Shown here piece by piece: positions 1 through 9,000 of a DNA stretch of 64,000 nucleotides. The position numbers were made by a program. The stretch lies in the NCBI RefSeq assembly GCF_024223415.1, contig NZ_CP100500.1; one strand, given 5' to 3'. Position 1 is the stretch's first letter. Each line of letters opens with the position of its first letter. This DNA is from Escherichia coli. GTDB lineage: Bacteria > Pseudomonadota > Gammaproteobacteria > Enterobacterales > Enterobacteriaceae.

Positions 1-3000
1 CAGCTTACGCCGTGATGGGAATTGTCCGGCCTTTTCCAGGCGGTAGCGGCATGAGCGGCTAAGCCCTGTTAGCTTTTCGCATTCTTTTTCACGTATAAAC
101 CGATCAGTGCTTAACACTATTGCCCCCTTTCGTTTCTTAAAGAGTTATTTCGTGTTCTATTGCGTTGGTATGTGTCTGATTGTGTCAGGGTGATTCAGAG
201 TTGGCAAATGTTGGTGGCGGGTATTTTACAGAAACGGGGTTATTTTAATAAAAAACATTTTAATTCAGTATTATGCAAAGGCATAAAATCTCGTTTTATG
301 CCTTTTTTCTCACTATTTAAAGCGTTATTCGCTAATGTATAAAAAACCAGTTGAGCATTAAAAATCAGCAACTTATAAATCTGTATACTTTTTGGCCTCT
401 TGTTCGTGGTTGTTTCACGTTGTTGCGTATTGTTTCACGTTGTATCTGTGCACTTATCCAGTATGCGCATACTGAAAAAACACGAAAAAAATTATTTTCT
501 TCTGGTTACTGGTAGCGTGGTTACGTTTTCATGTGCTCCCGCCAGTATCTCCAACCGCTCCACCCACATATCCAGCGCATTGCGTTTCGCATCCAGATAA
601 CGGGAATGATTATAAACTCGCTGCATTCCTGGCATCTGGTGGCCTGTAAGCTGCTCCACGACGTGAGGATCCACGCCTAAATCGTTCAGCATCGTTGTAA
701 AGGTGCGCCGGATGTCATGCAGTGACCAGTGAGGGTGTTTAAGCCTCCTGTGCGCTAATCTTCCATACTGCGATACGCTGGCCTCCTGTTTCACTTCCCC
801 CAGCAATAAGCCCGTGTGCCTGTTCTGCTCCACCAGCTGCGTGACGAACGGCAGTATCGCTTCCGGTATGGGCCGGAATATGGCTACCTTCGTTTTGCTG
901 TGCTCCTTCGGAACGGTCCATAGCATTTCGGTAAAATCCCACTCCCCGATCTCCGATAGCCTCAGTTCTACTGTCCTGGCTCCGAAGACAATCAGGAGGC
1001 GGATTAGTGCGACGTAGTAAGGGGAAAATATTTTTTTGTCCAGTGCCTGCAATAATTCGCCAAGTTCTTTGTTACTTAAGACACGCTGACTTATATCCGG
1101 TTTTTTCCCAACGTCAGCAACACTCATATCATCAAGAACGTTGCTGATTGCATAGCGCCGCTTCCGGCAGAACTTAAGCGCCTGTTTGCATGTCTGTAGC
1201 AGGAATCCGGCGGAAACAGGGGCTTGCTTTGCCACCCGATCAAAACAGGCCAGCCAGTGCCGTAGCTCGCATTTATCCAGCGGCATAGCACCAATCTGCT
1301 GTATTACGTGATTATTAAGTCGCCTTTTCAGGGCGATATAATCCACGCGGTTTTCCTTTACGTAATACTCAAGCCAGTAGGTAAGCGCATCGCCAACCGT
1401 TACAGGCTTTAACGCTTCCTGTACGGTGTAATTCATCTCATGACGTGGATTTTTCCCCTCAGCCAGCCATGCGCGGCACTGTGCGGCTTTTTCCCTGGCT
1501 GCTTTCAGGCTCAGATCAGGATAATTTCCCAGCTTAATCCGTTCCGGTCGTGCTCCCCTTCCCGTTCCGGCCCTGTAGGTGAAATACCAGGTTAAAAGGC
1601 CGCTGGTTGAATGCCTGACGGTCAGGTTTCCACCGTCATTAAGAAAGACTGTTTTTTGGGCGGGTGTGCCGTTGATTTTCCTTAGCTGTGTATCGCTCAG
1701 TTTGTTAAGTGCTCTGCGCATAATTTTGATTCCGGTCATCACAATTAACTACACCATTAACTACACCGATCGTTGCACAAAGGGCTACAACGTGAAACAA
1801 GCTGGAACAAGAAAAATCACAAATTTGTTTATAATCAAAAACATAATGCACAACCTGAAACATTATGAAACGGCAAAAAACACTAATTGATAAAAGGGAT
1901 ATTTAAATAACGTCACCGGTTACCGCGATGATTTACTGGCTAACCGTGCGATTGTGAAACACGGTAATTTCGCACTGTTAACACCAGACGGTCTGGTAAA
2001 AAATATTATTCCGGGCTTTGAAAATTGTGACGCGACAATCCTCTCCACGCCAAAGCTGGGTGCCTCTTTTGTTGATTATCTGGTCACACTGCATCAAAAC
2101 GGTGGCAACCAACAGGGCTTCGGTGGCGAAGGCATTGAAACGTTCCTGTATGTGATCTCTGGAAATATCACTGCCAAAGCCGAAGGCAAAACATTTGCCT
2201 TAAGCGAAGGTGGCTATCTTTATTGCCCGCCAGGCTCCTTAATGACGTTTGTTAACGCCCAGGCCGAAGACAGCCAAATCTTTTTATATAAGCGCCGCTA
2301 TGTTCCGGTAGAAGGCCATGCACCGTGGCTGGTTTCTGGCAATGCCAGCGAACTGGAACGCATTCACTATGAAGGTATGGATGATGTGATCCTGCTGGAT
2401 TTTCTGCCCAAAGAGTTAGGTTTTGATATGAACATGCATATCCTCTCTTTTGCACCAGGTGCCAGCCATGGTTATATCGAAACACACGTTCAGGAACACG
2501 GTGCCTATATTCTTTCCGGTCAGGGGGTTTATAACCTCGACAATAACTGGATCCCGGTGAAAAAAGGCGATTACATCTTTATGGGCGCTTATTCTTTACA
2601 GGCTGGTTATGGCGTAGGGCGTGGTGAAGCGTTCAGCTATATTTACTCGAAAGATTGCAACCGCGACGTAGAGATTTAAGTCATACCACTCGCCTGATTA
2701 TTTTTAGCTATGTTGGATTTTGCCACGGTTTATACCGTGGCTTTTTTTGTAACATTGCCTGATGCGCTTCGCTTATCAGGCCTACATGATCTCTGCAATA
2801 TATAGAATTTGCGCGATTTTCAGGAAGGATATAGTGCTCATGCAGCATCCGGCATGAGCACTGCGCTCTTATACGAAATAAATCGCATCCGCTTTAAAGG
2901 TAAGGGTCAGTTTTTAATTCCCTGACCTATTTTAATGGCGCAGGCAATATTTCGCGCGCTGTTGAAGAGATTGGTTTCACCGCTGGCGAGCACTTCGGCT

Positions 3001-6000: not shown

Positions 6001-9000
6001 CACAAGTAACATCCTGACCTTCCTGACGTGCACGAGTCACTTCTTCAACGCCTTCCGGGCTGCTGATATGGCAAACGTGCAGACGGCAACCGGCAACTTT
6101 CGCCAGATACAGCACGCGGCGAATCGCTTCCACTTCGGTAAATACCGGACGCGAAGCCACATAGTCATGGGCAGTTACGCGACCTTCACGTTTCGCTTCT
6201 TCGCCCAGTGCGTCACAGATCAGCGCGTTTTCGCAGTGCACCAGCACCGGCTGCCCCAGTTCGCCCAGCTTCTGCGCACCTTTGAAGAACTGCCAGTCGT
6301 TTACATCACGGAAGTCGTTGTCGATACCGCGATCGCCACAGGTCGCAACGAAGCATTTGAAGCCGACAACGCCCACTTCATCCAGCTCATGCAGACGGTC
6401 GATGTTGTAAGACACCAGGCCACCGAGTTGTGCCGCATCGATAGTCAGCTTGCCTTTAGCGGCATCGAACTTCAGTTCAATTGAAGCGCGGTCAACCGTT
6501 GCAGGCAGCTGGTTGAGCGGCATTTCGATCATGGTGGTGATACCACCTTTTGCCGCTGCGCGAGTACCGGTTTCATAACCTTCCCAGTGGCTACGACCCG
6601 GTTCAGAAATATGGGTGTGCGCATCAACCATGCCCGGCGAAACCACCAGACCAGACGCATCCATAACTTCTTTTGCATCGCCCAGATCCTGACCGATAGC
6701 AGCAATTTTGCCGCCTTTAACGGCGATATCTACAACGCGAGCTTCGTTTTCTAAAATAACGGTGCCGTTTTTAATGATTAAATCAAAAGACATAACAAAC
6801 TCCTTGTAAAATACAGATTGGTTTTTAACTCAATGTTCAATATCGGGATTAATTAACCTATGGTTTTTTGCTCTCCTGTTTTTTCTGCTGTTGTACGTTT
6901 CTTTAATAAGGCGTAGGCCGCAAAGGCGACGATGACGCCGACAAACCATGAAACACGCGATAACGGTTCCATAAAGGGAATAAACTTACCGCCAAGAGAT
7001 AAAATAACGGCCACCAGAGTTACTGAAAACGCGGTGAGGTTAAAACCGTTATCGTAATATTTATAATCGCCAGGTGCGGTGTACAGTTCATCAAGATTAA
7101 TTTGCCCACGCATCACCACAAAATAATGCGCCATCATGACACCAATTACCGGACCCAGCATTCCGCCGATGATATCGAGGAACAGATAAATACTGTCCTG
7201 ATTTTCCATTAATTTCCACGGGCAGATCAGCAGGCTGATAATACTGGCAATCAGTACGCCGTTTTTATAGGTCAGTTTTGTCGGTGCAATGGCAGCAATC
7301 TAATAACCGGCCGGAATAATATTACCGGTGGCGTTAGTGGAAATGGTCGTCATCAGAATAACCAGTACCGCAAAGAACGAGGCAAACAGGCTGTCCCAAC
7401 GCTGAACAATATCCAGCACGTTCCAGGTGTCAGCGCCGTAGTGAATACTGGCTCCGGCAATAATACATACCCCAGCGACCGCAAACAGAATATAGGCCAC
7501 AACTAAACCCAGCGTTTGCCCCAGCGCTTGCTCACGAAACGAGTGGGCGTTTTGCGTAAAGTCGGATGCGCTCACCGCCGGTGCCGCCCAGACCGCAACT
7601 ACCGCATTAATCACTACCAGGAACAAGAATCCACTGTTTTCTGCTTTCTGAATACCGCTCGGAATGTAGTCAAAGATTGGACCGAGCCCGACCAGCGAAA
7701 TCGCCCAAATCGCCATACCGCCGAAAACGATATAGATGCACGGGTTAAGAATAGCAGTGAATTTATTTAAAACTTTGCCACCGCCAAAACCTATACCAAC
7801 GTTGACCAGCCAGAAGAGTAAGAAAGTAATTAAGCCCGGTAGAGAAAGGCCTAACAGAGTGAAATCACCACCGAGAGTCAAAAATCCCGGCCAGATTTTG
7901 CCAATCAGAATCAAGCAGGCCAGTGACCCCGCGTAACATTGCAGGCCAAACCACATAATGGCAGCAATACCGCCTCTTAATAATCCGGGAAACAGTGCGC
8001 CACGTACGCCGTAAGAAGCACGCAGGATCATGGCAAACGGTACGCCGTATTTACTGCCCGCAGCGCCGTTTAATACCATTACCGCGGCAATGAAAAAGGC
8101 GCTGAGGATAATTGCCAGCATAATACTAAAGGTAGACAAGCCGAGAATAAAAAAGCCGCCGACCATCACATAATTGGGAACGTTATGAACCGAACCCATC
8201 CATAAGGTAAAATAGTTAAATGTTTTCCAGGTCCGCTGGCTTTGCGTTTTCGGCAATAGATCTTCGCTATAGCCGCGTTGCTGGAATAGTTTTCTCTGAT
8301 GTTCCATAAATCCCTCTTAATTTCACGTATCGAATAACGTTGTTTTAATCTAGCTATGAGGAACAAATAAAATAAAAATATTATTTTTAATACTGAAGCA
8401 ACATCTTTGGCTGCTTTCTTTTTTAATATTGCTGGCCGATTCATTTTCTGATATCGGCCATTTTTATTGCGGGTATCAGGCCAGTTTATGGTTAGCCATT
8501 AATTCCAGCGCCTGCACTAACGCAGAGTGATCCAACTGGCTGCCACCGTTTGCCGCACAGGTATTAAATAGCTCCTGGCAGGTCGCAGTGTTTGGCAGGT
8601 TCAGCGCCAGTGCTTTCGCACTTTGCAGTGCCTGGTTGAGATCTTTCTGGTGCAGCGCAATTTTGAAACCTGGATTAAAGGTGCGTTTAATCATGCGCTC
8701 ACCGTGAACTTCCAGAATACGTGAGGAAGCAAAGCCGCCCATCAGCGCCTGGCGCACGCGTACCGGGTCTGCACCGGCTTTTGAAGCAAACAGCAGAGCT
8801 TCAGAGACCGCTTCAATATTGAGCGCCACAATAATCTGATTTGCCACTTTGCAGGTTTGTCCGTCGCCGTTACCGCCCACAAGGGTGATATTTTTACCGA
8901 GCAGTTCAAATAGCGGTTTAACACGTTCAAATACCGCTTCGTCACCGCCAACCATAATTGACAACGTACCTTCACGCGCGCCGATTTCGCCGCCGGAGAC

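Follow-up and report, generated by a model that had tools for sequence, protein, structure and literature searches.

Satellite integration at allE and a nonsense mutation in allW in the allantoin cluster of one Escherichia coli clone

Pseudogenes in allantoin utilization are described for Salmonella (PMC4372345, PMC2658671). Examples are allP and allB of S. Typhimurium ST313 and the typhoidal serovars. In host-adapted Salmonella, multiple independent inactivations have struck this dispensable nitrogen-scavenging pathway, its transporter included, and the locus described here is alike in this respect. It differs in that the host is E. coli, the clone is very young and consists of few isolates, and one of the lesions was caused by a mobile element. 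Within E. coli, the all/fdrA cluster suffers sporadic damage in several strains: AR_0085 carries an fdrA-ylbE deletion, and in CP058012.1 an IS3-family element replaces allE. The ylbE gene of K-12 is a pseudogene. Each of those cases is a single event; here there are two lesions, or as many as four across the wider clone, and they strike the core route of uptake and degradation.

The phage satellite (PICI) EcCICFT073 has its attachment site between ycfD (roxA) and phoQ, with the core GGACATATTT (PMC6092414 Table S1), and this type of site and core was reproduced in GF4. In contrast, the element of the present study lies between allC and allE, has the core GGGATAT, and destroys the start codon of a host gene. 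The allC/allE site was absent among the att genes of the 2018 table of E. coli PICIs (PMC6092414 Table S1), and no mention of an allE/ylbA site was found in a paper on PICI integrases. Some relatives inserted at allC/allE resemble the cf-PICIs, whose prototype is EcCIEDL933, in carrying a module of HK97 capsid, protease, portal, and terminase (bioRxiv 10.1101/2022.09.08.507074), and others at this site instead carry a lambda-E-like capsid and decoration module. The locus also recalls the "active lysogeny" of the Listeria comK prophage, as integration inactivates a host gene that, judging by the att structure, precise excision would restore; unlike in that system, regulated excision and a tie to physiology are hypothetical at allC/allE.

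Here, we describe two lesions in the all cluster of E. coli (assembly GCF_024223415.1, contig NZ_CP100500.1), within a stretch of 64,000 nucleotides that was analyzed as a whole and is called the window. Within a single E. coli clone, two steps of allantoin use have probably been knocked out by two events that differ in mechanism. The case is one of ordinary, clone-specific pathway erosion; events of this type are already known, and no new mechanism is involved.

The satellite between allC and allE

The window begins inside an inserted element that extends past its left end. The integrase-proximal end of this satellite occupies positions 1..1893, and the sequence aligns with the KV7 and NCTC10444 backbone only from 1890 onward. 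A tyrosine integrase gene at 495..1721 on the minus strand (PHROG 1, integrase, E=5e-70) occupies the place expected for allC upstream of allE, and its transcription is directed away from allE. The 409-aa integrase is 94% identical in amino-acid sequence to that of EcCICFT073, and both elements share the integrase-proximal arm and the tandem GGTGTAGTTAAT repeats, the P arm being nearly identical as far as GATAAAA. The repeat ATTAACTACACC, present twice in tandem at 1744..1767, is read as putative arm-type integrase binding sites; in AR_0085 this tandem repeat lies close to either end of the element, and it was found in the CFT073 and GF4 elements as well.

The genes beyond the integrase were taken from the draft contig UDHK01000042.1, which matches window positions 1-11721 identically, is 23.5 kb long, and terminates in a primase gene. 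This contig continues past int with genes for AlpA (PF05930, PHROG 2790), DUF4222, and a D5_N primase (PHROG 864, E=7e-141), a set also found in PICIs and cf-PICIs; by mapped coordinates, no more than the final ~117 bases of alpA fall within the window. The element thus has a tyrosine integrase homologous to PICI integrases at its end and, in the draft contig, an alpA regulator and a primase adjoining int. On these sequence features, the inserted element was assigned to the EcCICFT073 family of phage satellites (PICIs).

The insertion site lies between allC and allE, with the core ATAAA[T/A]GGGATAT. In the window, the junction of the satellite and allE carries the att core ATAAAAGGGATAT at 1890..1902 on the plus strand, where an A derived from the element converts ATG to AAG. 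Occupied loci were checked in three complete genomes and in ten contigs (L021-L030) obtained from a look-up of truncated AllE. In every one of them, the allC side reads ATAAATGGGATAT and the allE side ATAAAAGGGATAT, and the change of the allE start from ATG to AAG was identical at every occupied site examined. The elements of the three complete genomes, AR_0085 (11.2 kb), TUM1886 (14.8 kb), and 2012C-4502 (14.2 kb), are flanked by ATAAA[T/A]GGGATAT and have the size expected of a PICI (about 10-15 kb); the element of the window runs off its left end. The junction of int and allE was spanned by a match in 12 of 5,426 RefSeq complete genomes, and the 241-aa truncated AllE was indexed in 61 blocks of a public collection. 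In many E. coli of unrelated background, the same junction occurs in a cluster that is intact in all other respects. Since the integration targets a specific site and is also seen in such strains, it is uninformative about selection on the pathway.

The allE gene, encoding (S)-ureidoglycine aminohydrolase, lies at 1894..2679 on the plus strand and is severed from its operon promoter, ribosome-binding site, and start codon. The native start region is GGAGTCATAAATGGGATATTTAAAT in the near-identical genomes NCTC10444 and KV7, while the window has CACTAATTGATAAAAGGGATATTTAAAT, with AAG as codon 1 (1894-1896) owing to T to A at 1895. The loss of the canonical start that a preliminary description had reported was thus confirmed. 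An in-frame TAA precedes the AAG codon, and the first in-frame ATG, GTG, or TTG is the GTG at 1954, which gives a product of 241 aa versus 261 aa. In AR_0085, the NCBI annotation presents the shortened allE as an intact gene of 247 aa, whose start corresponds by coordinates to a CTG at window position 1936. On reading, neither of these alternative starts (CTG 1936 and GTG 1954) has a Shine-Dalgarno-like sequence, and no promoter-like site emerged from a crude scan of the plus strand from int to these candidates. It is therefore most likely that allE is silent in the strain of the window, and some residual expression may still arise from the annotated 247-aa CTG start.

The preliminary description had also held that allE lost its upstream operon partners. 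This applies within the window, but in all three complete genomes carrying the insertion, allD and allC are intact and merely displaced by 11-15 kb; accordingly, both are expected to be intact beyond the far side of the satellite in the window. The lost start of allE is best read as a fixed by-product of site-specific satellite integration and not as mutational decay, and from the att structure this lesion should be reversible through precise excision.

The allW nonsense mutation and the remaining all genes

The second lesion lies in allW (ybbW), the allantoin transporter gene, at 6853..8307 on the minus strand. Position 7302 is A in the window versus G in KV7 and NCTC10444, which turns codon 336 of 484 from CAG (Gln) to TAG (Q336*, at 7302-7300), in agreement with the premature stop noted earlier for ybbW. 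The stop splits the 484-codon gene into ORFs of 335 aa and 118 aa; apart from it, allW is collinear with and identical to the gene of KV7 and NCTC10444. Four predicted hydrophobic, membrane-type segments (345-467) lie past the stop. As the truncated protein lacks these segments, it is very probably inactive. AllW was reported as essential to the transport of allantoin (PMC10163214), and this transport would be lost.

The full 1008-nt truncated allW and the 118-aa ORF downstream of it were present in GCA_900482235.1, ERR3437659, SRR7874689, and SRR19977217, and three further samples, grouped with SRR7874689, also carry the stop. A 55-mer centered on the mutant base matched none of the RefSeq complete genomes, of which 1,633 of 5,426 were typable with the wild-type 55-mer as a control. 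Four of eight exact matches to the 335-aa AllW (L010, L011, L013, and L014) were rejected as stop carriers; they end exactly at the variant base, are 1-3% divergent, belong to unrelated lineages, and are contig-end artefacts. In the case of the other allW-mutant isolates, the contigs stop at a REP element at ~2770, in the allE-glxK spacer, before the satellite site is reached. A literature search found no mention of the assembly and run accessions of the clone.

Whether the lesions are real was judged from GCA_900482235.1, a draft assembly made independently, which agrees with the window at every base of 1-18306 but one in a homopolymer. In the window, the A-run at 17055-17062 lacks one base relative to this draft of the same strain, probably a homopolymer error, and the annotation of a related genome retains allE as a gene of 247 aa; both points would favor sequencing errors or a harmless difference in start site. 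However, the two lesions are substitutions or junctions and not homopolymer indels, the allE junction has a reproducible att structure, and the alternative allE starts are preceded by neither a Shine-Dalgarno-like sequence nor a promoter-like site. Moreover, both lesions are identical in the independent draft and the allW stop also appears in other runs, and thus they are not assembly errors. An artefact in one or both lesions, which the preliminary description had left as an alternative, is contradicted by these data and is exceedingly improbable.

The rest of the cluster is full length, as had been described for allB, glxK, gcl, hyi, glxR, allA, allR, and allS. On the minus strand, glxK (2907..4052), ybbY (4074..5375), and allB, the allantoinase gene (5432..6793), are intact and identical to KV7, and gcl (10243..12024) and allA (13007..13489) are intact. 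The window copies of hyi (9454..10230, minus strand) and allS (13719..14645, plus strand) are intact as well, while in a sister sub-lineage (contig L009) hyi is frameshifted at codon 83 and allS carries W212* and A14T. These nine genes are identical to KV7 except for two clone-specific missense SNPs, namely L241Q in glxR (8476..9354, minus strand; SNP at 8633) and P190L in allR (12114..12929, minus strand; SNP at 12361). In solved homologues, the column aligned with GlxR L241 holds L, N, N, or Y and is not conserved, nor is the AllR P190 column conserved in structures of the IclR family; no functional effect is claimed for either change. A perfect palindrome in the gcl promoter, TTGGAAAATTTTTCCAA (12045..12061, minus strand), presumed to be the operator of AllR, is unchanged in the window. 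The SNP at 12063, two bases from this palindrome, was rejected as a sign of rewiring because NCTC10444 has the base of the window and the change belongs to KV7.

Clone comparison and weighing of the explanations

Over 60 kb of backbone, the clone differs from KV7 and NCTC10444, which lack both lesions, by ~10 clone-specific SNPs. Three of these fall in the 12.8 kb of the all cluster versus seven in the 47 kb of the remaining window; 3 of 10 SNPs within 21% of the sequence is not a significant excess (binomial estimate, P ~0.36). All three cluster SNPs are nonsense or missense, and none of the three is synonymous compared with three of six coding SNPs elsewhere, these being very small numbers. 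Outside the cluster, the window also has a 38-bp duplication in rhs and homopolymer changes of 1 bp. Only four positions separate the contig of the sister isolate (L009) from the window, and three of them are the hyi frameshift, allS W212*, and allS A14T of the SRR7874689 sub-lineage. A further all cluster with multiple frameshifts, in UGAJ01000003.1, was set aside as a probable long-read assembly error.

Several independent inactivating events have thus struck one pathway in one lineage: allW Q336* in the clone, the satellite at allE in the strain of the window, and the hyi frameshift with allS W212* in the SRR7874689 sub-lineage. The last two, beside the allW stop, support erosion following transporter loss, and the strain of the window has probably lost the use of allantoin. 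The idea of independent, converging lesions therefore stood insofar as both are independent and hit allantoin catabolism, but within the window the SNPs show no significant excess in the cluster. Similarly, ongoing decay fits the clone with the allW stop and its later hyi and allS knock-outs, but the allE lesion is a satellite integration.

In the course of events that we favor, a C to T transition made the TAG at codon 336 of allW in the ancestor of a small clone, leaving a product without the last four predicted membrane segments. Separately, in the strain of the window, a satellite of the EcCICFT073 family integrated by a tyrosine-recombinase crossover within GGGATAT. Since the core half brought by the satellite is ATAAAA, allE now starts with AAG; by the same event it lost its AGGAG ribosome-binding site, and the whole element separates it from the allD promoter. 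With uptake gone, selection on the remaining pathway may have been relaxed, which would fit the extra hyi and allS knock-outs in sister isolates. It is also possible, if rather doubtful, that a function-blind satellite insertion and a random nonsense SNP met by pure coincidence in one 13-gene cluster with no change in selection. The unraised SNP density is what chance would give, the insertion is also found in many strains with otherwise intact all genes, and the rhs duplication and homopolymer changes are disruptions outside the cluster. However, chance accounts poorly for the sister isolates with the allW allele, which over 15 kb have gained just three more mutations, two of them knock-outs, or for the absence of synonymous changes among the cluster SNPs.

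An adaptive rewiring of glyoxylate or glycolate metabolism, in which the loss of import and allE together with allR P190L and glxR L241Q would retune the gcl operon under positive selection, is very unlikely. That all three cluster SNPs alter a protein, one of them the repressor AllR, speaks for it, but the P190 and L241 columns are unconserved in solved homologues, the presumed AllR operator is intact, and the sister lineage has lost both hyi, a gene of the gcl operon, and AllS, the activator, which looks like erosion. The rewiring raised in the preliminary description consequently found no support. Only slightly less unlikely is a reversible switch, in which induction by a helper phage would excise the satellite, restore the allE ATG, and couple the recovery of allantoin nitrogen to the satellite. 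The allC side keeps ATAAAT and GGGATAT is identical on both sides, so precise excision would rebuild the ATG, and Gram-negative PICIs do excise when induced (PMC6092414). Yet regulated excision tied to nitrogen status is conjecture, and with allW broken in this strain, restoring allE would not regain the use of external allantoin. A broader proposal remains speculative and is itself unlikely: allC/allE might be the dedicated attachment site of a PICI/cf-PICI sub-lineage retargeted from phoQ/roxA, always turning ATG into AAG, with the insertions acting as reversible off-switches, one of which would here have become fixed in addition to the knock-out of the transporter, within a selected loss of the pathway. 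In such retargeting, the integrase and the proximal arm would have been retained and the core and distal arm exchanged, and the selected loss would parallel that of allantoin catabolism in host-restricted Salmonella. Erosion after transporter loss, with the satellite as a separate event, is accordingly the reading that we retain.

Implications

The practical value of these findings is modest. A start-less allE can be annotated as intact, as in AR_0085 (247 aa), and its loss would then be missed by metabolic reconstruction based on annotation. The allC/allE site is a recurrent PICI/cf-PICI site at which a host start codon is knocked out, and it is missing from the 2018 list. Together, the allC/allE and phoQ/roxA sites are a natural pair in which to study the change of target by satellites that keep the same integrase. 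KV7 and NCTC10444 are near-identical relatives of the clone with intact pathway genes, and the allW Q336* clone, with its later lesions in allE, hyi, and allS, offers a very recent example of stepwise erosion after the loss of a transporter.

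Nonsense mutation in allW and state of the remaining cluster genes

The window was E. coli chromosome, and its positions 1890-61689 were collinear with strains KV7, NCTC10444, NCTC9112, SCU-316, and 'O78 strain 3'. Compared with KV7, the collinear part contained 14 mismatches, two 1-bp gaps, and one 38-bp tandem duplication. The gene order was satellite end (1-1893), allE, glxK, ybbY, allB, allW, glxR, hyi, gcl, allR, allA, allS, and mnmH.

The premature stop described in the allantoin transporter gene ybbW (allW) was confirmed. Position 7302 was A in the window and G in KV7 and NCTC10444, which changed codon 336 on the coding strand from CAG to TAG; four hydrophobic segments (about 345-369, 375-393, 427-445, and 449-467) lay after the stop. 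The entire truncated gene, including the stop codon, was found in GCA_900482235.1, an independent draft assembly treated as the same strain, in ERR3437659 (with three similar places), in SRR7874689 (4 samples), and in SRR19977217, and all of these sequences were identical or nearly identical to the window. A mutant 55-mer centered on the variant base, with the variant included in each 28-base seed, matched none of the RefSeq complete genomes, while the wild-type 55-mer matched 1,633. Therefore, it was concluded that the allW mutation is real, rare, and limited to one clone.

Among the genes reported as intact in the preliminary description, allB, glxK, gcl, hyi, allA, and allS were identical to those of KV7, as was ybbY, whereas glxR and allR each carried one missense change (L241Q and P190L, respectively). 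Both changes were clone-specific and present in all clone members, and neither position was conserved among solved homologues. The palindrome of the gcl promoter, TTGGAAAATTTTTCCAA, was intact.

Several differences were observed outside the cluster. The RHS core gene, which has 1400 codons in NCTC10444 and KV7, was broken by a perfect 38-bp tandem duplication (20772-20857, 2.3 copies), leaving ORFs of 249 and 1164 aa. Two homopolymer 1-bp deletions relative to the same two strains were located at 17055-17062 and 36666. The former, in an A-run, split a 163-aa YbbD_head-like gene and is probably an assembly error, since the run is complete in the draft assembly of this strain. The latter was at codon 4 of a type I secretion ABC transporter gene, which could be rescued by initiation at a GTG located 7 codons further downstream. 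For siiEA (36679-57456), which encodes a giant adhesin, the window had a single unbroken ORF of 6925 codons, whereas the KV7 copy is interrupted by a stop at codon 6577 and annotated as a pseudogene. A second insertion (61690-64000) with an integrase ORF (61759-62802, minus strand, 347 aa) followed glsA, where copA comes next in KV7 and NCTC10444; a 'phage integrase' was also present at this place in strains Ch1 and 135.

Satellite insertion and loss of the allE start

The native order, as read in NCTC10444 and KV7, is the stop codon of allC, AGGAG, and then the start of allE, the (S)-ureidoglycine aminohydrolase gene (GGAGTCATAAATGGGATATTTAAAT). In the window, the junction read CACTAATTGATAAAAGGGATATTTAAAT, with identity to the native chromosome starting at 1890. 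As the preliminary description had stated, the canonical start was lost: codon 1 was AAG instead of ATG, an in-frame TAA preceded it, and the ribosome-binding site was absent. Moreover, allE appears to have no promoter because the integrase gene is divergent and a promoter scan found no promoter-like site ahead of the candidate allE starts.

The DNA upstream of allE belonged to a phage satellite. Its tyrosine integrase gene (495-1721, minus strand) was 94% identical to that of EcCICFT073, the prototype E. coli PICI, and the 170 bp from int to the junction were almost identical to the corresponding EcCICFT073 region as far as GATAAAA. The draft contig of this strain continued beyond int with alpA, small ORFs, DUF4222, and a D5_N primase, an arrangement that is PICI architecture. 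The exact integrase protein was also recorded in GCA_900482235.1 and as UTJ25348.1; across all genomes of the RefSeq complete set, the best match to window 1-2400 was at most 98.3%. A match spanned the int-allE junction in 12 of 5,426 RefSeq complete genomes, and the truncated 241-aa AllE was indexed in 61 blocks of a public collection. Among 10 such places listed, allW encoded the full 484 aa in all nine whose contig reached it.

Complete genomes with the same junction contained elements of 11.2 kb (AR_0085), 14.8 kb (TUM1886), and 14.2 kb (2012C-4502). The AR_0085 element carried a lambda-E-like capsid and decoration module, whereas the TUM1886 and 2012C-4502 elements encoded an HK97 capsid, protease, portal, head-closure proteins, HNH, TerS, and TerL; the HK97 capsid-to-TerL module is the cf-PICI gene set (bioRxiv 10.1101/2022.09.08.507074). 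The preliminary description had also considered the upstream operon partners of allE to be lost; this is how the window appears, but allC and allD were intact directly beyond the element in all three genomes.

RefSeq annotates the start-less allE of AR_0085 (7936-8679 of its locus, corresponding to window 1936-2679) as an intact 247-aa (S)-ureidoglycine aminohydrolase, the start of which is, by coordinates, the codon CTG at window 1936. Such a call conceals the lesion from annotation-based analyses. The allE-glxK spacer was 227 bp in this lineage versus 129 bp in other strains, and the extra DNA (window 2750-2790) held a REP-like palindrome, GCCTGATGCGCTTCGCTTATCAGGCCTAC, at which all short-read contigs of the clone end. 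Other damage in the region included an IS3-family element where allE belongs in CP058012.1 and an fdrA-ylbE deletion in AR_0085.

Attachment site and relation to EcCICFT073

All occupied loci that were read had ATAAATGGGATAT next to allC, with element DNA after it, and ATAAAAGGGATAT next to allE. The crossover thus lies within GGGATAT, the A of AAG comes from the element, and the change from ATG to AAG is automatic on integration. With the A supplied in this way, precise excision should rebuild the ATG. The tandem repeat GGTGTAGTTAATGGTGTAGTTAATT (opposite-strand reading, window 1744-1767) appears in Table S1 of PMC6092414 as the 'att site core' of EcCIDI14. In the present element, it is internal and occurs close to each end, which suggests an arm-type repeat and not the core of the crossover.

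EcCICFT073 and the GF4 element are located between phoQ and roxA (ycfD), with the core AAATATGTCC, which corresponds to the published core GGACATATTT (PMC6092414 Table S1), in contrast to GGGATAT at allC/allE. Elements at the two sites shared nearly the same integrase and proximal arm, and their sequences parted exactly after GATAAAA, from the core onwards (window region 1722-1902). This pattern suggests retargeting between phoQ/roxA and allC/allE through exchange of the core and distal arm. The allC/allE site does not appear among the att genes tabulated for E. coli PICIs in 2018 (PMC6092414 Table S1).

Convergence, chance, and consequences for allantoin utilization

The two lesions had been read as converging on the pathway in the course of ongoing decay. 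With KV7 and NCTC10444 as references for polarizing the derived allele, the clone branch showed three SNPs in the 12.8-kb cluster (one nonsense, two missense, and zero synonymous) and seven in the remaining 47 kb (three synonymous, three missense, and one intergenic). By our own estimate, neither the density of cluster SNPs (binomial P about 0.36) nor their type distribution was significant. Moreover, the target of the satellite is set by its att site and not by selection on the pathway. Thus, the window alone does not demonstrate convergence, and the lesions might have met in the cluster by pure coincidence, without erosion under relaxed selection. However, a sister-isolate contig of the same transporter-less clone (SRR7874689, found in 4 samples) showed four differences from the window over 15.2 kb, namely, a 1-bp deletion at hyi codon 83, allS W212*, allS A14T, and a homopolymer base in the A-run at 17055-17062. 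Two further knock-outs among three mutations, after the transporter was already lost, are what erosion under relaxed selection would produce, and coincidence accordingly becomes the less likely reading. Decay therefore draws its support from the sister isolates.

Pseudogenization of dispensable catabolic pathways is well known, and the allantoin case has been described in host-adapted Salmonella. It is likewise well established that PICIs share integrases and use fixed att sites. Any novelty is probably minor and concerns allC/allE as an att site at which insertion knocks out a start codon, the change of target that seems to separate these elements from EcCICFT073, and the clone itself.

For the clone, import of external allantoin is likely impossible, and allB, ybbY, and glxK, which lie downstream of allW, may also be expressed less because of the stop. 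The allD promoter should continue to drive allD and allC, and glyoxylate assimilation via gcl, hyi, glxR, and glxK should still be encoded.
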